From contig JBMORE010000035.1 in assembly GCA_049322255.1 (NCBI GenBank), forward strand, positions 1 through 31,752: 31,752 nt of DNA. The letters run 5' to 3'. Below are positions 1-17,278 of this stretch, in pieces (the stretch's first letter is position 1; each line of letters starts with the position of its first letter). The position numbers and the translations under genes are program-made. Source of the DNA: Myxococcota bacterium (GTDB lineage Bacteria > Myxococcota > Myxococcia > Myxococcales > Myxococcaceae). Under the pieces are notes generated by a model, which made no database searches, was not told the origin of the DNA, and saw nothing but the letters and a program-made list of their open reading frames with translations.

Positions 1-86
1 GACATCACCTCGGAGCACCGCACTGCACGGAAACACCAACCGAAGAGCCGGATGCGGGAAAACCGCACGTCCGGTTCTGTAAGGAG

Positions 87-120
87 CCTCAGCCGTGCTA
101 CTCGCCGGCTGAGGTTTACT
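87..120 (+). terminator. Stem-loop: 9-bp stem CCTCAGCCG / CGGCTGAGG (87-95 and 106-114), 10-nt loop, then TTTACTT. Either the terminator of an upstream gene outside the window or a structure sequestering the GAGG ribosome-binding site of the next gene.
   Basis: Perfect 9-bp inverted repeat read directly from the sequence, followed by a T-rich tract. The GAGG at 111-114 sits 8 nt before the ATG at 123 and lies inside the 3' arm of the stem. Confidence 0.4.
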
Positions 121-122
121 TG

Positions 123-776
123 ATGTCGCACAAGCTCTCGTACCTTTTGGCGATGTTCCTGGGCACGGCCAGCTGGGCTGAGGAGAGCCCCGTTCCCTCT
201 GCGGCGGCCTTCGGTGGGGTGGTGGCCCCGGCGGTACTCCCACCCGGCTCTTCGTCGGTGTACGGCTTCGTGGGAGCGCAGGAAGTCGGCGGAGGTTTTC
301 GCCAGGGGCTGGGCGGGGTCGAGCTCGAGGTGCGCGCCGCGTTCAACTACCTGCTCCTCTCGCTGGGCGGGGACGTGGTGCTCAAATTCCCACCGACGCG
401 GGTAGGCCAGGTGGACTTGGCGCCCTACGGAGGCCTGGGCCTTTCCTGGGACAGCGGCTCGCGCTACTTCGACCGGGTGAACTTCTCCTACCTGGCCCTT
501 CGGCCGCGCGTGGGTGGGGTCGCGGTGATGGAGCTGGCGGAGACGGTGCGCGGCCTCGCCGTCGTCGATGTGCCCTGGAGCATCGCCATACGTCCCTGGG
601 GCGGGCACCATTTCTCCCCTCTGGCGGGCGGGGGCGCCGAGTTTCACCTGGGCAAAGACATGTCGGCGCTCATTCTGGGAATGCTGGGCCCCGACGTCCT
701 CAAGGAGCCGCTCGGAGTCACCCAGGTGCGCCTGGGCTACCAGCTCAAGCTGGCCCTGGGCTTTCGGCTCTTCTGA
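123..776 (+). CDS. Outer-membrane beta-barrel protein candidate.
   Basis: N-terminal signal peptide (MSHKLSYLLAMFLGTASWA|EE). Gly/aromatic-rich alternating sequence. Ends ...LALGFRLF with a terminal Phe, which is typical of outer-membrane beta-barrel proteins. The ORF-track start at 120 is TTG; the ATG at 123 is preferred. Confidence 0.55.
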   Translation: MSHKLSYLLAMFLGTASWAEESPVPSAAAFGGVVAPAVLPPGSSSVYGFVGAQEVGGGFRQGLGGVELEVRAAFNYLLLSLGGDVVLKFPPTRVGQVDLAPYGGLGLSWDSGSRYFDRVNFSYLALRPRVGGVAVMELAETVRGLAVVDVPWSIAIRPWGGHHFSPLAGGGAEFHLGKDMSALILGMLGPDVLKEPLGVTQVRLGYQLKLALGFRLF

Positions 777-779
777 CCT

Positions 780-2153
780 CTACGACATCCCGTAGCGGTC
801 GAGCTTCTTGAGCAGCCCCTGGCGCGAAAGGCCCAGCGCCTCGGCGGCGTGGGTGCGGTTGTTCTGGTGCTTGCGCAAGGCCTCTTCGATTTCTTTGCGC
901 TCCAAAAGCTCGATCTTCTGCACCAAGGTGGTGGCGCCGCTGACGGGTATCGACGGTCGCTCGGAACCGGTGAAGGAGAGGTCTTCGTCCTGAATCTCTC
1001 TCCGCCCTCCCGCGAGCACGGTGGCCCGCTGCATCTCGTGGCGCAGCTCGCGTAAGTTCCCCGGCCAACGGTGGGCCAAGAGCGCCGCCGCGGCGCCGTC
1101 GGAGAGCAGCTTCGCCCGCCCGTCGGCGCACAGGTGCGCGCACCCGTTCAAGAAGTGCTGGGCGAGCACGGGGATGTCGCCGGTTCGCTCGCGCAAGGGC
1201 GGCAGGCGCACCTCGGCGCCCTTGATGCGCCAGTAGAGGTCTTCGCGGAAGTTGCCAGCCTCTTGCGCCTTGATCAGGTCTTTGTTGGTCGCGGAGAGCA
1301 AGCGCACGTCGACGTGCACCGGACGATCGGCGCCCACGGGCAGCACCTCGCCCGCCTCGATCGCCCGCAAGACCTTCACTTGCAGCGCCGGCGTCATGTC
1401 GCCAATCTCATCGAGAAAGAGGGTGCCCCCGTCGGCCTCGACGAAGAGCCCCTTGTGATCCTTCACCGCGCCGGTGAAAGCGCCCTTCACGTGACCGAAG
1501 AGCGCGCTCTCCAAGAGTGTCTCGGGGAGCGCCCCACAATTGACGGCGACGAACGGCCCAGCGCGGCGGCGGCTCTTCTGGTGAATCGAGCGCGCCAAGA
1601 GCTCCTTGCCGGTGCCGTTTTCTCCAGTGACGAGCACCGGCAAATCGCTGCCGGCGATGCGCTCGGCCAGGGTGAGCGCCTGCAAGAACGCCGCGCTCTG
1701 CCCGACCATCGAGCCGTCGGGCTTGGCCTGCGACAGCGAGGTCTTGAGCGCCTCCAGCTCCTCTTCGAGCGCCACGCGGGCCATCGCCCGCTGCACCACT
1801 ACCAGCAAGACGTCGGGGTCCACCGGCTTGGTGAGAAAGTCGTAGGCGCCGCACTTCACTGCGCGCAGCATGTGCCGCTCGTCGCCGGCGCCGGAGCAGA
1901 CCACCACCTTGGTCCCCGGGCTCTGGGTGACCAGCTCCTCGAGCTGGGCCAACCCCGCCTCCACCGCGCCGTCGGGAGGCAGCATCAAGTCGAGCAGCAC
2001 CAGAGAAAAGCGCTTCTTCTCGAAGGCAGCGCCTGCCGAAGCCCGGTCGGCCGCTTCGACCACCTCGTACCCTGCCTCGCGCAACAGGCCTCCGTACACC
2101 TTGCGGAAGGCGGAGTCGTCGTCGACCAAGAGCAGCGGTTTGGAGGAGCTCAC
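780..2153 (-). CDS. Sigma-54-dependent response regulator, NtrC family (receiver domain, AAA+ sigma-54 activator domain, Fis-type HTH).
   Basis: Receiver motifs LLVDDD...LVLLDLMLP. Walker A GENGTGKE. GAFTGA sigma-54 contact motif (GHVKGAFTGA). C-terminal HTH ...RTHAAEALGLSRQGLLKKL. The start was moved to the GTG at 2153 (VSSSKPLLLVDDD) because an AAGGAG ribosome-binding site lies 7 nt upstream; the ORF track's 30-aa N-terminal extension is Arg/Cys-rich noise. Confidence 0.9.
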   Translation of the reverse strand: MSSSKPLLLVDDDSAFRKVYGGLLREAGYEVVEAADRASAGAAFEKKRFSLVLLDLMLPPDGAVEAGLAQLEELVTQSPGTKVVVCSGAGDERHMLRAVKCGAYDFLTKPVDPDVLLVVVQRAMARVALEEELEALKTSLSQAKPDGSMVGQSAAFLQALTLAERIAGSDLPVLVTGENGTGKELLARSIHQKSRRRAGPFVAVNCGALPETLLESALFGHVKGAFTGAVKDHKGLFVEADGGTLFLDEIGDMTPALQVKVLRAIEAGEVLPVGADRPVHVDVRLLSATNKDLIKAQEAGNFREDLYWRIKGAEVRLPPLRERTGDIPVLAQHFLNGCAHLCADGRAKLLSDGAAAALLAHRWPGNLRELRHEMQRATVLAGGRREIQDEDLSFTGSERPSIPVSGATTLVQKIELLERKEIEEALRKHQNNRTHAAEALGLSRQGLLKKLDRYGMS

Positions 2154-2169
2154 AGATCGACTCCTTACC

Positions 2170-3789
2170 TCATGCGCGGGCCACCGCGGCAGCGAGCACC
2201 GGTTGCACCCGCGGCAGGACCAGCTCGAACGCCGCGCCGCCAAGCTCCGAAGGCCCCGCCCGCAAAGTTCCGCCGTGGCGCTCGGCGATTCCCTTGGCGA
2301 TCGCCAGGCCCAGCCCGGTGCCGCGCGCGCGCCCGGTGACGAAGGGCTGGAAGAGCCGGGCAGCCAGCTCGGGGGGAATGCCCGGGCCGCTGTCTTCGAT
2401 GCACAGCCAAGCGCGCTCGTCCTTCACCGCGCCCCGCACCCGAATGCGCTTCACGTTCGCCTCCGCCACCGCGAGCAGCGCGTTCTCCAGGAGGATGACG
2501 AGCAGCTGGCCGAGCTGGCCTTGATCCGCTTCGACCAGGGCGCCCGGGGCGATGGCCAATTCGACGGACGTTCCTTCGGACGCGGCGGGCGGAAGCCCGG
2601 TCTTCGCGGTGGAGCTCGCCAGCTCCACGGTCACCGCCAGCTCCACCCAGCGCAGCTCCAAGGGGCGCGGGCGGCCGTAGCGCAAGAGGTCTTCCACGAA
2701 GTGGCCGGCGCGCTCGATCTGCTCCCGCATCGCGGCGCAAGTCGAAGGGTCGGCGCCGCCTCGCTCGAGGAGCTTTAGATGCGCCGACAAGACGCCCAGA
2801 GGGTTTCTCACCTCATGCGCCACCGCCGAGGCGAACGTGCCCAGCTCGGCGAGCCGGCTGGCCTGCTCGGCGCGGGCCTCCTGCGCGGCGAGCGCGTGCG
2901 CCAGCTCAGCGGAGTCGGCGCGGTCCTTGAGCAGGCGCTTGCCGATCCACCCCTGCAGCTCGCGACGCAACGGCTCGAACGCCAGCGCCGACAGCCCCAA
3001 GAGCACATACGCCCCCAAGCGGTACTCGGTGAGAAAGCGCTCGGTGGCCGCGCTCATCAAGGACATCACCCCGAAGAGAAAACCCGCGGAGAGGAACGCC
3101 GCCAGCGCCGAGTAGAGCAAGCTACGATCGAGCAGGCGCCGCTCGGCTGCGGGCTCGTGCGCGCGTACCACGTGGGCGAGCACCAGCAAGCCGCCGAGCA
3201 CCAGGTACATGCCATAAGGCAGCGGCAAGCCACCGGAAAGAAGGAGCGCGTTGGACAGGCCGCCCGCGTACCCCATCGCCCCGGCGAGCAGCAGGTTTCG
3301 CAAAAGCGCCTTCTCCTCCCCCCGCGCCCCCTTCCAACTCGAGGCGAGCTTGAACATGGGGAGGGTGGCAGCGGTGACCGCCAACGCCATCGCCGGCCAG
3401 AAGAGCGGGCCGCGCTCCATCGCCAAGGGCCCGTAGAGCACACCGGGCCGGAGCGCCCCGAGCACGGTGATCGCCAGCGCCACCACGTAGGCCAGCCACA
3501 CCAGCTCGTAGCGGCGCTGCCGGGTGAGGTCGTAGGCGGCGTGGAGGTAGCCTGCTGCGGTGAAGGCGCCGATCGCCGCCAGCCGCTCGCCCAGCCACGC
3601 GGCCTTGGGGAAGGAGATGAGGAAGAGCGCCCCGCTCCAGGTGGCCAGCGACAGGCAGTAGCTCGCCAGGCCGACGGCGTTTCTCCCCCGCAGCACCGCG
3701 GTGAAGAAGAGCAGCAGCGACACCGAGAGCACCGGCAAGAGGCTGTACGCATACAGCGCGCTCGTCACCCCATCGAGTGTAGCGCCCAT
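2170..3789 (-). CDS. Sensor histidine kinase with a polytopic (about 6-7 TM) N-terminal membrane domain, HisKA and HATPase_c domains.
   Basis: Hydrophobic helices fill the first ~300 aa. H-box FASAVAHEVRNPL. N/G boxes ...ENALLAV...DSGPGIPPE...GTGLGLAIAK. Its stop at 2170-2172 is 16 nt from the regulator's GTG. Confidence 0.85.
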   Translation of the reverse strand: MGATLDGVTSALYAYSLLPVLSVSLLLFFTAVLRGRNAVGLASYCLSLATWSGALFLISFPKAAWLGERLAAIGAFTAAGYLHAAYDLTRQRRYELVWLAYVVALAITVLGALRPGVLYGPLAMERGPLFWPAMALAVTAATLPMFKLASSWKGARGEEKALLRNLLLAGAMGYAGGLSNALLLSGGLPLPYGMYLVLGGLLVLAHVVRAHEPAAERRLLDRSLLYSALAAFLSAGFLFGVMSLMSAATERFLTEYRLGAYVLLGLSALAFEPLRRELQGWIGKRLLKDRADSAELAHALAAQEARAEQASRLAELGTFASAVAHEVRNPLGVLSAHLKLLERGGADPSTCAAMREQIERAGHFVEDLLRYGRPRPLELRWVELAVTVELASSTAKTGLPPAASEGTSVELAIAPGALVEADQGQLGQLLVILLENALLAVAEANVKRIRVRGAVKDERAWLCIEDSGPGIPPELAARLFQPFVTGRARGTGLGLAIAKGIAERHGGTLRAGPSELGGAAFELVLPRVQPVLAAAVARA

Positions 3790-3802
3790 CGAACCAAGTT
3801 CC

Positions 3803-4471
3803 CTACCCCGCGGCGAGTAGGCCCTCGGTGACGTCCTCGACGCTCTGTGCCACCTCTTTGACCAGCTGCACTACCTCGGCGTCGGGACGGCCAGCGAACT
3901 TCAAGAGGCGCAGCTGCGAGCTCATCTCTTCGATCTTGAGCAGCACCCGCTCGAGGTCGTCCGCGCCGCGACGGCGCATCTCCTTCAGTCGCTCGGTGTT
4001 CCGAAGCCTTGCGCGCACGCTCAAGACCCGCGGGTCGCCCTCGGCCACACCGCGGCGCAAGAGGTCGGCGAGCACGGCCTCGGCGGCGGCGCCGTCGAAC
4101 TCCGGAGAGCGCAAGAGCTCGTCCATCTCCTGCACCCGCCGCTCCATCGAGGCGAGCTGGCCGGCCACCGCGCGCACCCGCGTCACCTCGGGAACGAGCA
4201 CCTCCTCGGCGACGCCCTCGACCTTGCCCAGCGCGGCCAAGAGCTGTTCCTCGGCAGCGCGGATGCGGGGAGTGAGCCGACCGTTTTTCTCGGGCGAGGA
4301 GGACGCGGGCGCGCCACCGAGGAGCACCGGCGCGAACACCGGCCAAAAGAAGAGCGCGAGGAGGAAGACCGCCGCGCCATGCGCTCCCCGCCGCTCCTCG
4401 CGCAGCACCAGCGCCACCGCTACGCAAACGCCCAGCACTGCGTAGATGACCAAGGTCCCGGCGATGCCCAT
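3803..4471 (-). CDS. Membrane-anchored coiled-coil protein: two N-terminal TM helices followed by ~150 aa of predicted cytoplasmic coiled coil. Function unknown.
   Basis: Start ATG at 4471 with a GAAGGAGG ribosome-binding site 6 nt upstream. MGIAGTLVIYAVLGVCVAVALVL...VFLLALFFWPVFAPVLL, then heptad-like E/R/L-rich sequence. The ORF track's extension to 4930 has no ribosome-binding site and is a high-GC artefact. Confidence 0.6.
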   Translation of the reverse strand: MGIAGTLVIYAVLGVCVAVALVLREERRGAHGAAVFLLALFFWPVFAPVLLGGAPASSSPEKNGRLTPRIRAAEEQLLAALGKVEGVAEEVLVPEVTRVRAVAGQLASMERRVQEMDELLRSPEFDGAAAEAVLADLLRRGVAEGDPRVLSVRARLRNTERLKEMRRRGADDLERVLLKIEEMSSQLRLLKFAGRPDAEVVQLVKEVAQSVEDVTEGLLAAG

Positions 4472-4482
4472 GGCGGCCTCCT

Positions 4483-5394
4483 TCACAACACCGCGGAAAG
4501 GCCCTGCGACACCCGGTAGAGCATCACCGGAGCCACCACCGTGTACACCGCGCCCCAGGCGAGCACCATGCGTCGAAGGAAGTTGCCGCGCCGCCGGTGG
4601 GTGATGGGCAGGTGCTCCGCCAAGTCGCAGAAAGCGCGGTAGAGCGCGTGCACCCCGAAGAGCCCCACACCGAAGGGGAGGAAGAGGCCCACCTGCACCA
4701 CCGTCTCGGCGTCGCTGTACAGCCCCAGCACACAGGAGAGCACCCAGGCCACATAGAAGGGCAGCGCGCCGAGCAGGAGCACCGAGGTCGTCGCTTGCGC
4801 GCGCAGCGCTTGACCGGTCACCAGGCGAAACGACGCGTCGAGGCCGGACAGCTGCGTGTAGAAGTAGAAGCTGGGCAGGCACACACAGAGCGCGCCCAGG
4901 AAGGAAACCATCGAGGCGAGAGGCATCCACAACACCGGGTGGCCTCCGAAGAGCGAGACCTCGAGCACCTGCGCGGCGAAGCCGACCACCAGGCCGTGCA
5001 CCAACAGTCCGGCGAGCGAAAGCAAAAGCAACCGTTGCAGCGCGGAAGGCAGCTGGTGGTCATCGCATAGGAGCCGGTTGAGCCTTTTTCGCCCGCGCAA
5101 GATGAGGTCCATCATCAGGGGGCGCTCTCCGAGATCACGCTCCTCGGGCTCGCTCGGCACCACGGGGCGCAGCTGCGCAGAGTCGGAGCGCTTCTCGGTC
5201 GAGGCCACCCCGCTCGACGCCCCTGCTGCGGCTTTTGCGCAGGGCACAGAGGTCGCCGACGTCGGCGAATCCACGCACCGGGGAGCACTCGTCATCGACC
5301 CCAGACAGACCGGGCAGAACTCACGCTGCGCGGACATTTGGATGTGGCAGGAGGCGCACTCGACGTACAGCGAAGCAACCGACGTGGCCGACAT
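4483..5394 (-). CDS. Zinc-ribbon (CxxC...CxxC) plus polytopic membrane protein with a Yip1-like domain. Function unknown.
   Basis: Start ATG at 5394 with an AAGGAG ribosome-binding site. N-terminus MSATSVASLYVECASCHIQMSAQREFCPVCLGS has two CxxC pairs. It is followed by ~5 hydrophobic helices. The long N-terminal extension in the ORF track (to 6099) is noise. Confidence 0.6.
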   Translation of the reverse strand: MSATSVASLYVECASCHIQMSAQREFCPVCLGSMTSAPRCVDSPTSATSVPCAKAAAGASSGVASTEKRSDSAQLRPVVPSEPEERDLGERPLMMDLILRGRKRLNRLLCDDHQLPSALQRLLLLSLAGLLVHGLVVGFAAQVLEVSLFGGHPVLWMPLASMVSFLGALCVCLPSFYFYTQLSGLDASFRLVTGQALRAQATTSVLLLGALPFYVAWVLSCVLGLYSDAETVVQVGLFLPFGVGLFGVHALYRAFCDLAEHLPITHRRRGNFLRRMVLAWGAVYTVVAPVMLYRVSQGLSAVL

Positions 5395-5411
5395 GTCGTT
5401 CTCCTTCTTGG

Positions 5412-6023
5412 TCAGCGGGCAAAGTGAAACAGCTCGAGGAACACCATCAGCTCGGTGCCGATGACACCCACCAGGGCAATCCACACCAGAGGGAAGAAGC
5501 GGCCGCGCTCGGGCTCCAGCGCCTTCATCGTGCGCAAGAAGACGTCGACCATGCACACGCCCACCCCGGCGAAGGTGACCAGCTGCACCAGAAGCTGCAC
5601 TGCGGCGCTGGGTACCGCCACGTTGAAAAACCAGGTGATGGGAACGCCGGCGAGCATGGCCAGCGCCCCGAAGCTCACCGTGGCCAGCGCGGCGAGCAGC
5701 GTGGTCGAGGCGTCGAGCTTGGAGCCCAGCGCGCCGTTGATGATGTACAGCGCCGGCAGCGCCACCGTCCATGCGATTCCCGCGGCCAGCGGTGCCTTCC
5801 ACGCTCCCTCGAGCATCGTCCACACGCCGCCGGAGAGCCCCATGGAAAGCCCATAGGCGGCCAAGCCGGCGACGGCGTTGACGAGCAGCACCCCGAAGAC
5901 AATCGGTTTGGGCGCCACCGCGCCTTGGTGGCGATCTCTCCAGCGAACGGCGAACTCCTCGGGGCGCCGGAGCGCAACGCCCATCTCTCCAATTCCGGCA
6001 CGAATGTCTTGGGCCAACGTCAT
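5412..6023 (-). CDS. Yip1-like family polytopic membrane protein (5 TM).
   Basis: ATG at 6023 with a GAGGAGG ribosome-binding site. Five hydrophobic segments. Size and topology fit the bacterial Yip1-domain family (assignment from pattern, not from a search). Confidence 0.55.
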   Translation of the reverse strand: MTLAQDIRAGIGEMGVALRRPEEFAVRWRDRHQGAVAPKPIVFGVLLVNAVAGLAAYGLSMGLSGGVWTMLEGAWKAPLAAGIAWTVALPALYIINGALGSKLDASTTLLAALATVSFGALAMLAGVPITWFFNVAVPSAAVQLLVQLVTFAGVGVCMVDVFLRTMKALEPERGRFFPLVWIALVGVIGTELMVFLELFHFAR

Positions 6024-6060
6024 GGGTCCGCCTCCTCAGGGGTGAACGAGGCGAGGGCAA

Positions 6061-6076
6061 AGCAGGTGCCGTGCCG
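6061..6076 (-). promoter_or_regulatory. Candidate sigma-54 (-24/-12) promoter on the minus strand: cGGCACG-gcacc-TGCt.
   Basis: The reverse complement of 6061-6076 reads GGCACGGCACCTGCT. GG and GC fall at the consensus spacing of TGGCACG-N4-TTGC. This predicts a transcription start ~27 nt upstream of the ATG at 6023, with the GAGGAGG ribosome-binding site inside that leader. Confidence 0.45.
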
Positions 6077-6087
6077 CCGCCAGTGAC

Positions 6088-6144
6088 GCGAAACGACAAG
6101 GGCTCGCGCTCAAAGTGACAACGGCGTTCACACCGTCGTTTCGC
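6088..6144. promoter_or_regulatory. Inverted repeats upstream of the candidate sigma-54 promoter; possible activator/enhancer binding sites. Arms GCGAAACGAC (6088-6097) and GTCGTTTCGC (6135-6144), with an inner imperfect palindrome GTGACAACGgCGTTCACAC (6115-6133).
   Basis: Perfect 10-bp inverted arms read directly from the sequence. Located 12-70 bp upstream of the -24 element. Confidence 0.4.
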
Positions 6145-7041
6145 TCATCGACAGGTCGTGCGCATCAGCGGCGGAGCAGAGCCTTCACTCGCGGTGAGGT
6201 AGCCGCGCCCATCGTGGCGCCAGGCCACGGCCTCGCCCTGGAATTCCTCGGCGACAGGCATCGCTTTGAAACCGGCAGAGAAGATCGCCTCGAACGACTC
6301 TCCCGTGGGTAGCTCGAAGAGGTAGAGCCGGGTGTAGGTGCGCAAAAGAAGCCGCTCCCCGCAGGAATCTATGTCGCCGCCGGTGATGGGCGCATCGCTG
6401 GAGGTGGGCAGCGGCAACTGGGCAACCCGCTCGAGCGTGGCCACCGTCGATGCGTCGCGATCGCGCGGAAAGCGGAACACCTCGCTCCTCTCTCCGAAGC
6501 TCTTCTTGTCGACGACGTAGAGGTCTCCCGTGACGGGGTGAACGAGCAGCGTCTCGGCGTCGTGCTTCTCGCCTCCGGGGTACTCGAACGGCAGCCGCTC
6601 GAAGGGGACGTCCGCGCTCCCCATCAGCGCAGGCTCGGGCACTCGGTAGATGGCGTAGTCGGTACGCACTCGCGCGTTGTCTCCGAAATCTCCGAGGAAG
6701 ACGCAGGTGCCCGAAGAACAGGGACCGAGCGCCATGTCCTCCCAGTCGACTGCATTCGCGCCGGGGAGAATGAATTCACCCAGCGGCTCGCCGGTGTCGG
6801 AGAGCGCGAAGAAGCGCGCCGAATCACCCGAGTCGTTGTGCGCGTACCACACGCCCGGGTGCGCCCGACTCGCCGCCAGCCCGGAGAGCTCGGTCAACGC
6901 CGGCTGCCCTACCCGCCCCACCTCCACCGGCTGCGAAAACCGGGAACAACCGCAAGTGGCCTGCGCGTCTGCAGGTGTCTCCACCGGAGTCCGAACGCAG
7001 GCGGCCAGCATGATGGGCACCAGTGGAATCACGCGCTTCAC
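6145..7041 (-). CDS. Lipoprotein of unknown function (possibly a beta-propeller or phytase-like fold).
   Basis: GTG start at 7041. Signal peptide with lipobox: MKRVIPLVPIMLAAC. No recognisable catalytic motif. Confidence 0.6.
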   Translation of the reverse strand: MKRVIPLVPIMLAACVRTPVETPADAQATCGCSRFSQPVEVGRVGQPALTELSGLAASRAHPGVWYAHNDSGDSARFFALSDTGEPLGEFILPGANAVDWEDMALGPCSSGTCVFLGDFGDNARVRTDYAIYRVPEPALMGSADVPFERLPFEYPGGEKHDAETLLVHPVTGDLYVVDKKSFGERSEVFRFPRDRDASTVATLERVAQLPLPTSSDAPITGGDIDSCGERLLLRTYTRLYLFELPTGESFEAIFSAGFKAMPVAEEFQGEAVAWRHDGRGYLTASEGSAPPLMRTTCR

Positions 7042-7087
7042 ACGAAAGACTTTGTGCGTGCCAGGTCACCACCGCAAGTCGTGAGAG

Positions 7088-8506
7088 CTACCGAACCTTC
7101 TTCAGCTCGAGGACGAACTTCTCGGGGCCCAGAAAGCCCGTGATGCGCGGATCGGTCAGGATTTGGCCCCTGGAGTCGATGAAGGCGACCGTGGGAAGGC
7201 CTTGCACGCCGAAGCGCTGGAACAACGTCTCGATGGCATCGTCGCTGTTGGTCGCGTCGACTTTGATGCTCACAAAGCGCGAAGCCTCGGCGAGCACCTC
7301 GCGCGCCACGTAGGTGTCGCGGTCGAGCTCCTTACAGGCCTCGCACCACTCGGCGAAGAAGTCGATCATCACCGGCTTGCCCGAGCTCTTCGCGCGCTTC
7401 AGCTCGTCCTCGAACGGGCCGACCGAAGCGATGAGCGCGGTCTTCGGCGGGAACACCATGTCCCAGGCGACGCCGTGCTGCTCGGCGGGCTGAGCAAAAC
7501 CCAACTGCTCCGCCAGCGTGCCCACTGGAGGAGCATTCATCGCCGCGCCGCGGATCAGCAGTGCCGATGTCAACGCGAAGACGCCCGAGCCTTTGAGGAC
7601 GCGCTGACCGACCCCCTCTTTGAACGAACGGTGTATCGCTCCCAAAAGCACGCCGCCGAAGACCAAGAGCGAGGCCAGAAGAATTCCGCCCCAGCGACCC
7701 AAGAGGGCGGCGAGCTCAGCCATGCCCTCGCGCAGAGGAACGAAACCATCACGCAGATAGGAGGCTGCCAGCGCGACGAGGGCGATACCGAAGACGCTCT
7801 TGACCCACTCCATCCACACGCCACCCTTGGGGAGCCGGACGGTGAAGGCACCGATGAGGAAGAAGGGAACCCCGATGCCCAGGGCGTAGATGAACAGCAA
7901 CGCACCTCCAAGCAGCGCGTTCTGGCTCTTGGCGACGAAGGCAAGCACCCCGGCGAGGACCGGCCCCGTACAGGGCGCGGCGATGAAGCCCGAGACGCTG
8001 CCCATCAGCGCGGCGCCCACCAGACCTCCTCCGCCCACGGTATTGAGCTTGGTCGCCACTCCGCTGGGCAACGCCAGCTCGAATGCTCCGAACATCGAGC
8101 TTGCGAGGATGAGAAGAAACACCGCCAGCCCGGTCGCCACCCACGGACTCCCCAGCGCCGAGCCGAAGGCTTTCCCGGAGAGCGCCGCTGCCACCCCCAG
8201 CACGCTGAACACCAGCCCCATGCCGATGACGTAGGCGCTGGTGAGCACCACCGCTCGACCGCGGCTCTCCGCCCTCCGTGCGCCGAAAACGCTGACGGTG
8301 ATGGGAATGAGTGGGTACACGCACGGGGTGAGGGAGGTGAGCAGACCGCCGAGGAAGATGGCTCCGGCGGCGACGAGGAAGCGCCCGCTCTCCAAGAGTC
8401 CTGAGGCATCGATGCCCGCGTCGGCCCCGGTCGGCAACACGAAGGGCACCACGGCGAGCGCCGCCGCGAGGACCAACGCTGCCGCTGTCAACCCGCTCCG
8501 CGTCAT
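7088..8506 (-). CDS. dsbD: Thiol:disulfide interchange protein, DsbD/CcdA family, with a C-terminal thioredoxin domain.
   Basis: Transmembrane cysteines in the CcdA-type core (LTPCVYPLIP and AAPCTGPVL). C-terminal thioredoxin motif WCEAC (FFAEWCEACKEL). Confidence 0.85.
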   Translation of the reverse strand: MTRSGLTAAALVLAAALAVVPFVLPTGADAGIDASGLLESGRFLVAAGAIFLGGLLTSLTPCVYPLIPITVSVFGARRAESRGRAVVLTSAYVIGMGLVFSVLGVAAALSGKAFGSALGSPWVATGLAVFLLILASSMFGAFELALPSGVATKLNTVGGGGLVGAALMGSVSGFIAAPCTGPVLAGVLAFVAKSQNALLGGALLFIYALGIGVPFFLIGAFTVRLPKGGVWMEWVKSVFGIALVALAASYLRDGFVPLREGMAELAALLGRWGGILLASLLVFGGVLLGAIHRSFKEGVGQRVLKGSGVFALTSALLIRGAAMNAPPVGTLAEQLGFAQPAEQHGVAWDMVFPPKTALIASVGPFEDELKRAKSSGKPVMIDFFAEWCEACKELDRDTYVAREVLAEASRFVSIKVDATNSDDAIETLFQRFGVQGLPTVAFIDSRGQILTDPRITGFLGPEKFVLELKKVR

Positions 8507-8582: not shown

Positions 8583-10130
8583 TCAGGCGGGCGCAGAACC
8601 GCTCGGTTTTCCGTTCGCCTTGGGCAGCTCCAGGCCCGCGGCGCGCGCCAGCCCCATCACCCCCTCCACCGCGGCGGCGATGTAACCGAACGGGTTGGCG
8701 CCGTCGACCGCGGTGACGTGCACCTCGCCCATCTTCTGCTGGAAGGCGGCCGCCAGCTCGGGGAGCTTCTGGGCGATCGCCAGCTGAATGACCTCGGCCG
8801 AGACGTCGTTCTCGATCTCGCGCATCGTCCGCGCCCGCGACAGCTCGAGCTGGTGGGCCAGCTGCGTCTTCTTCATCTCCAGCTCGGCCGTGCGCACCTC
8901 GACGTCCAACAGCGCGACCTCCGCTTCCGCCACCTTCACCTTCACCCGCACCACCGCCTCGGCCTGGCTTTCGGCGGCCAGCGCCATCTGGTGCCGTGCC
9001 GCCGATGTCTCGGCCTGAAGCTGCGCCTTTTCCACCTCCGCCTGCATGCGGGCACGCTCCATACCCTGCTCATGCGAAAGCCGCGCCTCGGCCATCCGCG
9101 CCTGCGCCGCCAGCTCGCTCAGCCGCGCGCGTTCCTCGGCCGCTTGGCGCTGTTCCTTCACCTCCAGCTCGGCGGCGAGCCTGGCCAGGGCGAGGTCGCG
9201 CTCGTTGCTCACCTCCCCTTGCTTGACCATGCGCTCCTGCGAAAGCCTCGCCTCGGCGATTCGCGCCTCCGAGGCGAGGTGCTCGAGGCGCGCCTGCTCC
9301 TCCGCCGCCAGGCGCTGCCGCTTCACCTCGGTGGCCGCCGCCACCCGCGACAGCTCGACCTGCCGTTCAGAGCCCGCCTCGTCCTGCTTGACCGCGCGCT
9401 CCTTGGCCAGCTCGGCCTCGCGGGCCATGCGTTCTTGATCTTGGCGGAAGCGCGCCTGCATGTTGGCGAACACCGCCTGCGACATCACCCGCACGTCCTG
9501 AATCTCGATGGTGTCGATCACCACCCCCCAGCCTTTGTGGGTGCGGTCCTCCGGGCGGCCGACGCCCGAGACCACGGGAGCGATTTCGCGCATCAGCTCA
9601 CTCGCAAGCCCCTCCTTGCGACGGGTGAGCACCTGCTCGACGCTCATGTTCGCCACCAGCCGCCGCGCGGCGCCGACGAACATCTCCACCAGCATCTGCT
9701 CGAGCTTCTCCGAGGCACGCTCGGGGAAGCTGAAGTTGAGCATGCGGTAGGCGATGAGCGGTTCGGCGATGCGGTACACCGCCAACCCCGTCACCTGCAC
9801 GCCTACCTTCTCCGCGGTGATTTGGTCGGCGGTGAAGTGCAGCCGCTGCACGGTGGTGGGGACGATGGCCACCGAGTCCCACGGCCACTTGAAGGTCGAC
9901 GCACCCTGGCCCGAGCTCACCACCGTGCCCCCCCTCATGCGGATGAGGAACTCGCTGGGCTTGGCGGAGATGAAGCCCCACGACTTGAGCTTCGCCGGGT
10001 CCTCCTCCGGCTTGCCCGCGCGCCAACCCTCCTGGTAGCGCAGCCGCTCCGAAGGCTGGCTGGAGCTCACCGTGAGGTGTGCGCTCGACGGCACACCGTT
10101 GGACTTCTGCTTCTCCGTATTGGGTCTCAT
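8583..10130 (-). CDS. Flotillin-like SPFH/band-7 protein with a long Ala/Glu/Arg-rich coiled coil.
   Basis: ATG at 10130 with an AAGGAGG ribosome-binding site. SPFH-like N-terminal half (...FIRMRGGTVVSSGQGASTFKWPWDSVAIVPTTVQRLHF...VYRIAEP...). The C-terminal half is an EA-rich coiled coil containing an internal ~55-aa duplication. Confidence 0.8.
   Translation of the reverse strand: MRPNTEKQKSNGVPSSAHLTVSSSQPSERLRYQEGWRAGKPEEDPAKLKSWGFISAKPSEFLIRMRGGTVVSSGQGASTFKWPWDSVAIVPTTVQRLHFTADQITAEKVGVQVTGLAVYRIAEPLIAYRMLNFSFPERASEKLEQMLVEMFVGAARRLVANMSVEQVLTRRKEGLASELMREIAPVVSGVGRPEDRTHKGWGVVIDTIEIQDVRVMSQAVFANMQARFRQDQERMAREAELAKERAVKQDEAGSERQVELSRVAAATEVKRQRLAAEEQARLEHLASEARIAEARLSQERMVKQGEVSNERDLALARLAAELEVKEQRQAAEERARLSELAAQARMAEARLSHEQGMERARMQAEVEKAQLQAETSAARHQMALAAESQAEAVVRVKVKVAEAEVALLDVEVRTAELEMKKTQLAHQLELSRARTMREIENDVSAEVIQLAIAQKLPELAAAFQQKMGEVHVTAVDGANPFGYIAAAVEGVMGLARAAGLELPKANGKPSGSAPA
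9050..9390 (-). repeat. Diverged in-frame tandem duplication (~165 bp x 2) inside the flotillin coiled-coil region.
   Basis: Protein repeats ERAVKQDEAGSERQVELSRVAAATEVKRQRLAAEEQARLEHLASEARIAEARLSQ and ERMVKQGEVSNERDLALARLAAELEVKEQRQAAEERARLSELAAQARMAEARLSH. The corresponding DNA is visibly similar. Confidence 0.5.
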
Positions 10131-10309
10131 GGCGCCTCCTTGGGGGTGTGACCATCGGCGCTGCAGGATGGCGACCACCCGCGCGCCCTCACCTTTCGGG
10201 CATTTCGACGCCGGCATGCCCCAAGATGGAGCAGACCGCGCCACCTTGGAGCAGGTGGGGAGCAGGTCGACTTGACGCGTAAAACCCCGCCGGGCATGAG
10301 CTAGAGGTC

Positions 10310-11467
10310 ATGGCTCGCGCGCCCATCTATCTCGACCACCACGCCACCACCCCGCTCGACTCACGCGCGCTGGAGGCGATGCTCCCCTACTTGAAAGAGC
10401 ACTTCGGCAACGCGGCGTCGAAGAGCCACGTATTCGGCTGGCGGGCAGAAGGCGCGGTGGAGGCGGCGCGCAAGCAGGTGGCCGAGCTCATCGGCGCCTC
10501 GGAGCAGGAGATTGTTTTCACCAGCGGCGCCACCGAGTCGAACAACCTGGCGATCAAGGGGGTGGTCGAGCTCCATCGCAACGAGAAAGACCATGTGGTC
10601 ACCGTGACCACCGAGCACAAGTCGGTGCTCGACCCTTGTGCGCACCTTCAGCGCTTCGGCACGAAGGTGACCTACGTGGGCGTGGAGCGCGATGGACGGG
10701 TTTCGCTCGATGCGCTCCGCGAGGCGATGACGGCGCGGACGGTGCTCGTCTCGGTGATGCTCGCCAACAACGAGATCGGCACGGTGCAGCCAGTGGCGGA
10801 GATCGGCGCGCTGTGCCGCGAGAGGAGTGTGCTCTTTCACACCGACGCGGCGCAGGGCGCGGGGAAGATTGCTTTCGACGTCGAAAAGGCCAACGCCGAC
10901 CTGGTCTCCCTCAGCGCCCACAAGCTGTACGGCCCCAAGGGAGTAGGAGCACTCTACGTGCGAAGAAAGCCGCGGGTGCACCTGGCCTCGCTCATCGACG
11001 GCGGCGGGCACGAGCGTGGCCTGCGCTCGGGTACCCTCAACGTCCCGGGTATCGTCGGCTTCGGCAAGGCGGCGCAGCTTTGCCAAAACGAACGGGAGAC
11101 CGATGCGGCGCGGGTGCTGGGCTTACGCGAACGGCTGCGAACGAAGCTCTTTTCCTGTCTCGACGGCCTCACCCTCAACGGCGCGCTGGAGCCGCGGCTG
11201 CCGGGGAACTTGAACGTGTCCTTCGCCGGCGTGGAGGGCGAGGCGCTGATGCTGGCGATGCGCGAGGTAGCGGTTTCCTCCGGCTCGGCATGCACCTCGG
11301 CCTCGCTCGAGCCCTCGTACGTCCTTCGGGCGTGCGGCATCGATGACGAGCTGGCGCGCGCGTCGATCCGCTTTGGCATCGGAAGGACGAACACCGAGGA
11401 GGAGATCGACTACGTTGGCCAGTTGGTGGTGGAAAAGGTGAGAATGCTCCGAGCGGTGCACGCATGA
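10310..11467 (+). CDS. iscS: Cysteine desulfurase (IscS/NifS family, PLP-dependent).
   Basis: SSGSACTS active-site cysteine loop. Lys in the [10 protein letters not shown] motif. Conserved HHATTP...TSGATESNN. Confidence 0.9.
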
Positions 11468-13939: not shown

Positions 13940-16900
13940 CTAGCCCCGAGACTGACGTCCGCGGCGACGCCATGCGACAAAACACAGCACCCACCAGGAC
14001 ACCCCCAAGAGGTGGACTCCCCCCTCACAGCCGCAACCTACTCGGTAGTGCGTCGGGTCGCCGGGGACAGTTTCCTCCGCGGGGAGCTGGGCGCACGCGC
14101 CTTTGACGCAGAGGGCCCCGGCGGCACACGCCGCCCCGCACTGGCCGCAGTGGTTGGAGTCGCTGCCCAAGTCCACGCACGCGTTGGCGCAGGTGGTCAT
14201 GCCCGCAGGGCACAAGACGCGAAAGTCGGTCTCGGCCTCGCTGTTGCCTCCAAAGGGCACCCAGCGGCCGAACCCCGTTCTGACCGGATAGATGACTCGC
14301 GCGCGCCAGTGCTTCGCACCTGGAGAGAGGTTCGCGATCAAGACGCGGGCAACCGCTCCGGCGGTGAACGCAAGGGATTGAACCGTCCCTCGCCCATCGA
14401 AAGGAACCCCGACGTTCTTCACCTCGACCTCGAGCCGAAGCATCCCGCCCAGAGGACTTTCCTGGCCGACTCGCCCCATGAGGGTCACGTCGGGGCCCGC
14501 GGAGGCTCCCAGACCGATGCGCGTGACTCCATCGTCGCGAAGCTGCGCGAGCCCTCGCGCCGCGCCTGGAGCGCCGTCCCCACCGAAAAAGACATACGCC
14601 CGGCCCTCGGCGTTGGAGGACCCGTCCCAGCCCGGCGCGCCCACCAGGAGGTCACCGAACCCATCTGCGTTGACGTCTCCCGCGCTCGCCACCGCCGCAC
14701 CGAAGTTTGCTCCCTGCTGATCGACCGGATCGAACCGAGCTCCGGCGAGAGGGCCAGCGCTGCCCGCATAGGCGTATATCGCCCCTTCCCCCGCCACCGA
14801 GCCGCTCCCCCGGGGCGCACCGATGGCGACGTCGGCGAAGCCGTCGCCGTTGAAGTCGACCCCGCCCGCCACGGCGGCACCGAACCCCGCATCGACCTCG
14901 GGCGCTGGATGGGGCAGCGACGTCGCCAGGGTGACTCCGGCGTCTCCTCCCCAATAGAGGTATGCCCCGCCTTCGTTGAGCTCGGTCCCATCGAACGCCC
15001 GCGCTCCGATGAGCAGGTCGCCGCGGCCATCACCGTTGACGTCACCCGCGGCGGCGACGGCTCTGCCGAATTCAGCCCCCGCTTGATCTGTCGGATCGAC
15101 GGGGGTCCCAACAAGCTCTAGCCCTCCGGCGTTCCCGAGGAAAATGTAAGCACGCCCTTCGTCCGGTTGGGCGCCGTCCCACCTGAACGCCCCGAGCAGC
15201 GCATCGGCCAGCCCGTCTCCGTTGACGTCTCCAGCGCCGGCGAGAGGAAACGAGAACCACGCACCGGCCTGATCGGTGGGGTCGAGCACCCAAGCGGGAG
15301 TCGTTGCCAGCCCAGTGGGGCCTCCCAGGAACAAGTACCCGCGCCCCTCCTCGAAGGCTTCTCCGCTCCACTCGTCCGCGGAGACCAAGACGTCGGCGAA
15401 ACCATCGCCATTCACGTCGCCCGCGCCGGCGACCGAATCGCCAAAGAAGGACCCTGCCTGATCCGTCGGATCGAGCACCCACGCCGGCATGAGCGAAAGC
15501 CCGGTGGCGGTCGGGCCGCCCCAATAGACGTAGGCTCGCCCTTCGTTCGCCGCCTGGTTGTCGGCCCGATAAGCGCCGATCACCACATCGCCATACCCGT
15601 CTCCATTCACGTCACCGGCGGCCGAGAGCGAATTTCCGAGCTCGGCAGAACTTTCGTCGGTCGGGTCTGCCGTCCACGCCGGGCTGGTGGCGAGCCCTGT
15701 GGCGCCACCCAGAAAAAGGTAGACGCGCCCCTCGTCGCTGGCTTGGCCGTTCCAGTCCTTCGCCCCGATGAGGACGTCGCCAAAGCCATCGCCGTTGACA
15801 TCGCCCGCGCTGGCCACTGCTGCGCCGAACGCCGCTCCTGCCTGATTGGTGGGGGCAACCGTCCAGAAATTCGTGGGGGTGAGGCCCTCGGCGAACCCCA
15901 AGTAGACATACGCTCTGCCTTCGTCTGGCTGGGACCCATTCCATTCACTGGCCCCGACGACGACGTCGCCAAACCCGTCTCCGTTGACGTCCCCCGCACC
16001 GGCGACCGACACCCCGAACCAGGCATCGACCTGGTCCGCGGGGTCGGCTGTCCAAGTCAAGGCGCTTCGCAACCCGCTGGCGCTCCCAAGGTAGAGGTGA
16101 GCGCGCCCTTCGCTGGCGAACACCGCGCTGTCCCACGAGGGAGCGCCCACGAGCACGTCGGAGTAGCCGTCACCGTTGACGTCGCCGACGCCTGCCACGG
16201 ACGAGCCGTACCGGGCGCTGAACTGGTCGGTCGGGTCGTCGAACCACACCGGGCTGTTCGAAAGCCCCGCTTGGCTCCCCAGGAAAAGATAGGCCCGGCC
16301 TTCATTGCCGAAGCTGCCCGGCCCGTCCCAGCCCGCAGCGCCCACCAAAACGTCCGCATAGCCGTCTGCGTTGACGTCGCCCGCGCCAGCCACCGAATAG
16401 CCAAAGAGCGCGAAGGCCTGGTCGGAGGAGTCAGCCGTCCACGCTGCCGCCAAGCTCAAGCCCGACATTCCGCCCTGGAACAAATAGACACGCCCTTCGT
16501 TGGTTCGGGCTGTGGCCAGGTCGTCCCACAAGTAGGCACCCACCACCACGTCTCCGAAGCCGTCACCGTTGATGTCGCCGGCGCCGCTCACCGACGCCCC
16601 AAACCACGCATCGGGCTGCGGGTCGGGAGCGGTCAGCTCTCGCGAAGGTGAGCTGGCGAGACCTCCCGGTCCGCCGAGGTAGACATAGACCTTGCCTTGA
16701 TTGGTCAACGCCCCCGGTCCACTCCAACCTGACGCCCCCACGACGACGTCGGCGTACTCGTCGCCGTTGAGGTCGCCGGCACCCGAGACGGAAAACCCGA
16801 AGAACGCGCCCTGGAGGTCGGTGGGGTCGGCCACCCAGCTCGGCGCGGCTTCCAACCCGGCCGCGCTGCCCAAAAACAAGTACGCCCGGCCTTCGTCAGC

Positions 16901-17278
16901 GGCTTCGCCATCGAACCCGTCGGAGCCGACCAGAACGTCGGCAAAGCCGTCACCGTTCACGTCTCCCACACCTGCGACCGCCCAGCCAAACCGGGAGCCC
17001 GTCTGGTCCGTCGGGTCTGCCGTCCACGCAGGAACGGTCGCCAACCCGGTGGCGCCTCCGAGAAAAAGGTACGCACGCCCTTCGTCGGTGCGCCCGGCAC
17101 CCGAATCGTCCCAAGAGGGAGCGCCGACCACCAGGTCAGCGTAGCCATCGCCGTTGACATCGCCCGCGCTGGCGGAGCTACCGAAGTTCGCGGTGCTCTG
17201 GTCGGTCGGGTCGGCCGTCCATGACTCAGTTGCCCTGAGCCCCGCAAGGCTGGGAGAGCCGCTCCAGGTCAGCGCCAA
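13940..17278 (-). CDS. Very large FG-GAP (integrin-alpha-like) repeat protein with a Cys-rich module and a MYXO-CTERM-type C-terminal sorting tail.
   Basis: About 15 tandem ~60-aa repeats (...FG.SVAGAGDVNGDGYADVLVGA...EGRAYLFLG...). The C-terminus GCGCEGGVHLLGVSWWVLCFVAWRRRGRQSRG has the GC-motif, a TM helix and an Arg cluster characteristic of MYXO-CTERM. The start is uncertain (see findings). Confidence 0.8.
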   Translation of the reverse strand: MALTWSGSPSLAGLRATESWTADPTDQSTANFGSSASAGDVNGDGYADLVVGAPSWDDSGAGRTDEGRAYLFLGGATGLATVPAWTADPTDQTGSRFGWAVAGVGDVNGDGFADVLVGSDGFDGEAADEGRAYLFLGSAAGLEAAPSWVADPTDLQGAFFGFSVSGAGDLNGDEYADVVVGASGWSGPGALTNQGKVYVYLGGPGGLASSPSRELTAPDPQPDAWFGASVSGAGDINGDGFGDVVVGAYLWDDLATARTNEGRVYLFQGGMSGLSLAAAWTADSSDQAFALFGYSVAGAGDVNADGYADVLVGAAGWDGPGSFGNEGRAYLFLGSQAGLSNSPVWFDDPTDQFSARYGSSVAGVGDVNGDGYSDVLVGAPSWDSAVFASEGRAHLYLGSASGLRSALTWTADPADQVDAWFGVSVAGAGDVNGDGFGDVVVGASEWNGSQPDEGRAYVYLGFAEGLTPTNFWTVAPTNQAGAAFGAAVASAGDVNGDGFGDVLIGAKDWNGQASDEGRVYLFLGGATGLATSPAWTADPTDESSAELGNSLSAAGDVNGDGYGDVVIGAYRADNQAANEGRAYVYWGGPTATGLSLMPAWVLDPTDQAGSFFGDSVAGAGDVNGDGFADVLVSADEWSGEAFEEGRGYLFLGGPTGLATTPAWVLDPTDQAGAWFSFPLAGAGDVNGDGLADALLGAFRWDGAQPDEGRAYIFLGNAGGLELVGTPVDPTDQAGAEFGRAVAAAGDVNGDGRGDLLIGARAFDGTELNEGGAYLYWGGDAGVTLATSLPHPAPEVDAGFGAAVAGGVDFNGDGFADVAIGAPRGSGSVAGEGAIYAYAGSAGPLAGARFDPVDQQGANFGAAVASAGDVNADGFGDLLVGAPGWDGSSNAEGRAYVFFGGDGAPGAARGLAQLRDDGVTRIGLGASAGPDVTLMGRVGQESPLGGMLRLEVEVKNVGVPFDGRGTVQSLAFTAGAVARVLIANLSPGAKHWRARVIYPVRTGFGRWVPFGGNSEAETDFRVLCPAGMTTCANACVDLGSDSNHCGQCGAACAAGALCVKGACAQLPAEETVPGDPTHYRVGCGCEGGVHLLGVSWWVLCFVAWRRRGRQSRG
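14300..17100 (-). repeat. Intragenic tandem repeats (~180 bp units) encoding the FG-GAP blades.
   Basis: A recurring GDVNGDG(Y/F)(A/G)DV motif about every 60 aa in the translated protein. Confidence 0.6.

Follow-up and report, generated by a model that had tools for sequence, protein, structure and literature searches.

The 31.7-kb contig analyzed here (∼68% G+C; the entire contig is called the window) comes from a metagenome-assembled genome (MAG) of the Myxococcota and carries, on its minus strand, five genes (A to E) that encode three membrane proteins, a histidine kinase, and an NtrC-type sigma-54 activator. This operon is of the autoregulated sigma-54 two-component type, and its cargo is an undescribed, widely conserved membrane trio (A-B-C). 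From sequence comparisons, we put at about 60% the probability that these genes are a sigma-54-dependent two-component operon, self-contained and positively autoregulated, whose membrane-trio payload serves to maintain the membrane or protect it under stress. The parts of this reading differ in strength: the regulatory architecture as proposed is very probable, and a membrane-stress (Psp-allied) function of the trio is a tentative assignment to which we give slightly less than even odds.

Genes A to E form an operon

Gene A (ACOZIN_04825 in the source annotation; positions 5412–6023, 203 amino acids) was recognized as an open reading frame (ORF) with a ribosome-binding site, and genes B (4483–5394, 303 amino acids) and C (3803–4471, 222 amino acids) were recognized as ORFs. 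The kinase gene, D (2170–3789, 539 amino acids), was assigned from Pfam and hydropathy and, like A, B, and C, begins with ATG; the activator gene, E (780–2153, 457 amino acids), was assigned from Pfam and NCBIfam and begins with GTG. An earlier reading of this DNA (the original prediction) had described five minus-strand genes spaced 11–17 nucleotides (nt) apart. The spacers are indeed 17 (A/B), 11 (B/C), 13 (C/D), and 16 nt (D/E), all five genes are co-directional, and a second assembly of the same DNA, in which genes were called independently, gives identical product lengths (203, 303, 222, 539, and 457 amino acids). The same prediction gave every gene a strong ribosome-binding site, which holds for A (GAGGAGG), B (AAGGAG), C (AAGGAGG), and E (AAGGAG) but not for D, where the site is weak (GGGAA). 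Genes A to E are a genuine operon, and from their observed order and spacing we infer that A-B-C-D-E are carried on a single transcript.

A conserved sigma-54 promoter motif precedes gene A

Sequence reading and a pattern match place a −24/−12 motif of the sigma-54 type, cGGCACGgcacCTGCt (also written GGCACGgcacCTGCt), upstream of gene A at 6061–6076 on the minus strand. Its GG (6074–6075) and GC (6062–6063) have the GG-N10-GC spacing of sigma-54 promoters, in a TGGCAC-N5-TTGC-like context. Counted from this GC, transcription would start near position 6050 and produce a leader of ∼27 nt that includes the ribosome-binding site.

The motif was compared across 38 loci that contain relatives of A, taken at one genome per species (25 non-planctomycete and 13 Planctomycetota) and representing Myxococcota, Bradymonadales, Blastocatellia, and Planctomycetota. 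For each locus, 300 nt upstream of A was scored, and a motif was counted if it reached at least 17.4 of 20.6 and lay no more than 90 nt from A; the background at this score is one match per ∼7.7 kb. A high-scoring motif in the same register was present 28–60 nt before the start codon of A in all 23 non-planctomycete loci that have upstream sequence (19 Myxococcota or Myxococcota-type, 1 Bradymonadales, and 3 Blastocatellia), far above the 0.27 expected from background. The conserved register is (T/C)GGCACG-N4-nTGCT, and the gene upstream of it varies among the motif-bearing loci, sometimes being a divergent EamA-type gene. This comparison makes it well supported that the operon has its own sigma-54 promoter, kept in every related non-planctomycete locus examined.

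In two loci, top-scoring motifs, TGGCACG-N4-CTGCT, adjoin genes for RtcB and RtcR-like proteins (position 15609 of locus L006 and 13878 of L007). RtcB/RtcR is a known sigma-54-dependent RNA-repair operon, and these sites serve as a positive control for the scoring. A second, overlapping −24/−12-like register 5 nt downstream of the first, CGGCACctgctTTGCc (6056–6071, minus strand), was rejected, as the orthologues keep the first register only. A simple scan of positions 1–7300 for sigma-70 promoters and terminators returned nothing relevant.

A candidate activator site lies upstream of the promoter

The original prediction had also placed inverted repeats upstream of the promoter. The intergenic region contains no inverted repeat with an exact 6-nt seed; what stood was an imperfect palindrome, visible only when loci are compared. 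The aligned promoters give TGTC(A/C)ACG-N-CGT(T/G)GACA, centered 48–50 nt upstream of the −24/−12 motif in many loci and repeated in some of them another 22–23 nt upstream (two helical turns). In the window, the candidate site is TGTGAACGCCGTTGTCA (6116–6132, minus strand), with conserved halves TGTCNACG-N-CGTNGACA and 6 of 8 complementary pairs. Its center lies 48 nt upstream of the 16-nt promoter motif, at about −74 from the predicted transcription start.

When scored against TGT[CG][AC]ACG-N-CGT[GT][CG]ACA (maximum 16), this palindrome reaches 15 and is the sole site in the window at 14 or above; the window thus holds no further copies at that threshold that might mark extra regulon members. 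The Myxococcota and Bradymonadales loci, 280 kb in all, contain 21 sites that score at least 14 of 16, and 19 of these fall within 260 nt upstream of A. The recognition helix of E, LGLSRQGLLKKL, is invariant in all E orthologues examined, and the Blastocatellia activators have a different recognition helix and promoters that lack this palindrome. Because the site is conserved and co-occurs with the invariant recognition helix, the palindrome is the likely activator site, at which E would bind.

Kinase D and activator E make up a two-component pair

The assignment of D as a polytopic histidine kinase was borne out. Pfam detects HisKA (E = 4.6e-9) and HATPase_c (E = 7.9e-21), the H-box reads SAVAHEVRNP, and these domains are fused straight to a polytopic membrane domain of ∼290 amino acids with 8–9 hydrophobic segments by hydropathy. 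Neither Pfam nor hydropathy gives any sign of a HAMP, PAS, or periplasmic domain in D. The membrane domain shows 68% mean column identity across 17 orthologues, and numerous Pro, Trp, His, and Asn positions within its helices do not vary at all, a degree of conservation that fits specific sensing within the membrane. It has no related Pfam family, and profile searches found no sequence match for it in the PDB. The possibility that it is a relative of A was rejected (profile comparison probability 0.4%).

E contains Response_reg (E = 6.8e-22), Sigma54_activat (E = 1.1e-65), and HTH_8 (E = 5e-12) domains in Pfam, with Walker A (GENGTGKE), Walker B (LFLDE), and GAFTGA (at residue 224) motifs and a receiver that has its acidic pocket and Asp. 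Judged by these elements, and in keeping with the original prediction, E is a sigma-54 enhancer-binding protein of the NtrC response-regulator type, complete in that everything needed for activity is present. The best named NCBIfam matches are AtoS/ZraS for D and PrsR/AtoC/NtrC/ZraR for E, and all are under the equivalog cut-offs, as is the GlrR comparison for E; E scores 402 bits against 502.6 for PrsR, 360.8 against 714 for AtoC, and 353.8 against 558.6 for NtrC.

The membrane trio is kept under different regulators

The A-B-C order is retained in 37 of the 38 loci; in the remaining one (L024), B is not detectable and C is partial. Judged by this gene order, A-B-C is the unit that is conserved throughout the four phyla. 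What surrounds it varies. The full A-B-C-D-E set occurs in the window, in several Myxococcota and Polyangia MAGs, in one Bradymonadales MAG, and in one JGI metagenome contig. Hyalangium, Citreicoccus, and related Myxococcaceae have A-B-C-D followed by unrelated genes (ECF sigma, glyoxalase, or RtcB) and keep the promoter and the palindrome. A-B-C stands alone in two Byssovorax-labelled loci; promoter and palindrome were confirmed in one (L014), and the other (L012) is without upstream sequence. In the Blastocatellia (Acidobacteriota) loci, a near-consensus sigma-54 motif precedes A-B-C, which is followed by one or two genes for NAD-dependent epimerases/dehydratases, an unrelated HAMP kinase, and an NtrC-type activator.

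The Planctomycetota loci have A-B-C without D or E and without a convincing sigma-54 motif, and 11 of these 13 loci contain a PspA/IM30 gene (PF04012, E = 1e-22 to 1e-40). Its placement is of three types: inserted between B and C, following C, or pointing away from A on the opposite strand. The insertion between B and C is found in L025 and L027–L033 (∼9450–10150), and the positions of the gene in the other loci are 10263–10934 (L037), 6020–6694 on the minus strand (L035), and 7300–7845 on the minus strand (L038).

Since the trio is found beside another kinase, beside no kinase, or beside PspA, we read A-B-C as an output placed under varied regulators, and the original prediction's treatment of these proteins as accessories of kinase D finds no support. 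A sigma-54 activator and PspA are two hallmarks of proteobacterial phage-shock systems. The trio is linked to the first in two phyla and to the second in another, which suggests that it serves in membrane maintenance or stress.

The named cultured carriers of the locus are Hyalangium and Citreicoccus, among them H. versicolor H56D21, H. gracile, and C. inhibens M34; the genome scan turned up no orthologous locus in Myxococcus, Corallococcus, or Stigmatella.

Several neighbors of the trio were observed in single loci or small groups. In Blastocatellia, the SDR epimerase genes that separate C from the HAMP kinase gene (L019, 10179–11120; L021, 10066–12040) appear to share an operon with both, so the trio may be co-regulated with a step that modifies envelope sugars or lipids. 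A gene for a protein with FHA and STAS domains follows C in a Gemmataceae locus (L035, 9213–10196), and a Ser/Thr protein kinase gene is convergent to C in L033; in Planctomycetota, phosphoserine/threonine-based control may replace the two-component system. A contig labelled as a Klebsiella pneumoniae MAG (L026, CAMBFS010000068.1) has a locus of the Myxococcota type in which both the sigma-54 motif and the palindrome are present and an additional gene, for a membrane protein of ∼330 amino acids, lies between B and C; this contig is probably mis-binned.

A and B are predicted paralogues, and C forms a family of its own

The AlphaFold model of A (predicted local distance difference test, pLDDT, 87) has two N-terminal helices followed by five membrane helices, and hydropathy and charge distribution give A a basic N terminus (a cytoplasmic region) and a basic loop between transmembrane helices 4 and 5. 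The search for homologues of A found 420. In protein B, a disordered linker connects a CxxC-x12-CxxC ribbon to a five-helix membrane domain laid out as in A. Comparison of the A and B profiles (E = 2.9e-5, probability 74%, 88 columns), together with the shared motifs LRxxxxL and LP(A/S)(L/F)Y...LDAS, indicates that A and B are distant paralogues.

The original prediction called both proteins Yip1-like and gave the zinc ribbon of B a part in relaying a signal to the kinase. Neither A nor B of the window has a Pfam match at E ≤ 0.1. Yip1 (PF04893) is matched by 4 of 27 orthologues of A (best E = 3.2e-6) and by none of 30 homologues of B, which is linked to the family only through the A profile; one B homologue is labelled "Yip1 domain-containing" by its source. 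Five membrane helices with a cytoplasmic N-terminal region, as in the Yip1 family, are seen in the AlphaFold model of A and in the hydropathy and charge distribution of both A and B. These data point to a weak resemblance of A and B to Yip1. The four-cysteine ribbon of B is present as predicted and is confined to its closest relatives (7 of 30 aligned homologues), most homologues starting later. As it is absent from most B homologues, the ribbon is not essential, and the idea of a ribbon-mediated relay loses its footing.

The AlphaFold model of C (pLDDT 80.5) has an N-terminal two-helix membrane hairpin, an invariant WP motif, and then a helical bundle of ∼170 amino acids. The family to which C belongs is discrete and comprises 701 cluster representatives, almost all of them 210–260 amino acids long and free of extra domains. 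The modelled structures of A and C gave no specific fold match, and profile searches with A, B, and C led to no family of known function.

Proposed mechanism

In the mechanism that we propose, the polytopic kinase D, which has no extracytoplasmic or PAS/HAMP module, would sense a perturbation in the membrane itself, possibly through contact with A-B-C. D would then phosphorylate the receiver of E, as the domain content and adjacency of the two proteins suggest, and phosphorylated E would bind TGTGAACGCCGTTGTCA at about −74, a step to which the conservation of the site and the invariant recognition helix both point. Through its GAFTGA-containing AAA+ domain, E is predicted to open sigma-54 holoenzyme at GG-N10-GC (6061–6076). 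The resulting A-E transcript would include D and E, so the response would be self-amplifying. Because the promoter would drive the genes for the kinase and the activator themselves, positive autoregulation is the natural reading; the autoregulated module of the original prediction survives here, as a conserved promoter precedes an operon that encodes its own kinase and activator. The trio would act in membrane maintenance or stress, alongside or parallel to PspA/IM30, and may feed back on kinase D.

A broader proposal, a little less probable again than the membrane-stress function itself, is that A-B-C is an unrecognized multi-phylum module that works with PspA/IM30, either as a membrane receptor or anchor or as a parallel repair device. 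If true, the trio would join PspBC and LiaI/LiaF as a third type of membrane partner in Psp systems, one that is wired to sigma-54 activators in Myxococcota and Acidobacteriota and placed in pspA clusters in Planctomycetota.

Alternative explanations and points against the proposal

Several observations weigh against the autoregulated, membrane-stress reading. A PspA/IM30 gene is present neither in the window nor in any of the 25 non-planctomycete loci, so the Psp link comes from one phylum. A proposal that C is a hidden PspA/ESCRT-III homologue was rejected (profile comparison probability 0.5%), the topology of C is ambiguous by hydropathy, and A, B, and C have no family at a useful threshold in Pfam, NCBIfam, or PADLOC and no sequence relative in the PDB. 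Autoregulation of E is not universal, E being non-adjacent to D in several Myxococcaceae loci. As for the promoter, a strict −24/−12 pattern had at least one match in 25 of 100 shuffled windows, and a looser pattern had 4 matches in the window against 5.5 expected from shuffles; the sigma-54 promoter that the original prediction placed at 6061–6076 therefore stands on its motif, its spacing, and its presence in 23 of 23 loci, and not on its significance inside the window. We take it as real because it is conserved across loci and not from window statistics. Finally, no terminator-like site was found between the operon and the genes upstream of it, so read-through is possible.

Those upstream genes bear on a very improbable alternative, that the −24/−12 motif is a chance match and the operon is transcribed by read-through. 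Upstream of A, a 121-nt gap is followed by a lipoprotein-like gene (6145–7041) and dsbD (7088–8506), all on the same strand as the operon; with no terminator-like hairpin in the gap and a comparable chance match in 25% of shuffled windows, transcripts could in principle arrive from these genes. Against this, the motif holds its register and position in 23 of 23 loci despite their differing upstream genes, and no counterpart of the lipoprotein-like gene was detected in the other loci. Read-through is a possible additional source of transcript.

The most serious competitor, though an unlikely one, is that A-B-C are co-sensors of D, which detect and relay the signal and have no effector role of their own. 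Intramembrane-sensing kinases often need partner membrane proteins (LiaF with LiaS, for example, or BceAB with BceS), D lies directly after C in nearly all Myxococcota and Bradymonadales loci, and D has no recognizable sensor module and a membrane domain conserved as a protein-protein interface would be. Yet the trio occurs without D in Planctomycetota, with an unrelated HAMP kinase in Blastocatellia, and with no adjacent kinase at all in the two Byssovorax-labelled loci, and the zinc ribbon is not conserved. A co-sensing role is also compatible with the membrane-trio payload that we favor, since effectors can feed back on a sensor. Improbable, in our estimate, is that the trio is a transporter or export accessory with no role in membrane stress, the two-component system responding to the substrate; Yip1-domain proteins do accompany some bacterial transport systems, such as YknW with YknXYZ in Bacillus subtilis, and the epimerase/dehydratase genes between C and the kinase in Blastocatellia could mean an envelope glycan or lipid pathway.

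Other features of the window

A convergent plus-strand gene (120–776) faces the 3′ end of the operon. Just upstream of dsbD, the minus strand encodes a 553-amino acid SPFH/Band 7 (flotillin-like) protein with a long, repetitive Glu/Ala/Arg-rich coiled coil (8583–10244), and many Myxococcaceae loci likewise have dsbD ahead of gene A, at a distance of 2–4 kb. A 1112-amino acid ORF farther along the minus strand (13940–17278) contains ∼13 tandem repeats of ∼189 nt (63 amino acids) at 14622–17190, with 60–80% likeness at the DNA level; the translated repeats may be of the FG-GAP/VCBS type, as a candidate assignment only.

Comparison with known systems

Sigma-54 two-component operons are common in Myxococcota, and few have a known signal or output. 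For this one, the analysis defines a regulatory model (a promoter, a candidate activator site, and a dedicated kinase and regulator), and the PspA link in Planctomycetota provides a concrete functional hypothesis for three uncharacterized families. The cultured carriers make the locus experimentally accessible. The original prediction had taken the gene combination to be new, and our search of the literature on Yip1 with sigma-54 or PspA likewise found no description of this gene set. A broad survey of Psp partners does not list the arrangement and names the Yip1 clan only for the unrelated HAAS domain; the portion of its text that was searched makes no mention of Planctomycetes or Myxococcota.

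In regulatory layout, the operon resembles zraSR/zraP of enterobacteria and nla28S-nla28 of Myxococcus xanthus, in which a HisKA kinase and an NtrC-type regulator are behind a sigma-54 promoter that the regulator itself switches on by way of upstream repeats. It differs from them in the sensor of D, a novel polytopic module, and in the A-B-C cargo, which is absent from those systems. The Yip1 family (PF04893), including eukaryotic Yip1-Yif1, shares with A and B the five membrane helices after a cytoplasmic N-terminal region, although the window proteins reach no Pfam threshold for it. As paralogues with adjacent genes, A and B probably assemble into a heteromer, one that might be like Yip1-Yif1. 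We know of no bacterial Yip1-domain protein with an established mechanism, and for that reason the Yip1 name carries no functional information here.

The liaIH-liaGFSR system of B. subtilis is likewise a strongly autoregulated operon that combines membrane proteins, a response regulator, and an in-membrane-sensing kinase with no extracytoplasmic domain. The PspA homologue of that system, LiaH, is anchored by LiaI, a small membrane protein. LiaR, however, belongs to the NarL type and acts at a sigma-A promoter, whereas the window operon uses a predicted sigma-54 promoter and has no PspA homologue; by Pfam, A to E show no homology to LiaI or LiaF.

The Psp system of Escherichia coli (pspF, pspABCDE) differs from the window operon in its activator, as PspF is restrained by PspA and has no receiver domain, whereas E has a receiver and a paired histidine kinase. 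The operon also lacks PspA, PspB, and PspC, and Pfam matches neither PspB nor PspC to any of the trio proteins, which are unrelated to them in sequence. The likenesses are a sigma-54 promoter, an NtrC-family AAA+ activator with a Fis-type helix-turn-helix that acts on upstream repeats (the domain make-up of PspF is given in PMC11237479), and an output of small inner-membrane proteins that act on membrane integrity, features to which the Planctomycetota add a physical link between the trio and a PspA/IM30 gene. If this link is true, it would widen the set of Psp partners and provide a first physiological context for bacterial Yip1-like proteins.

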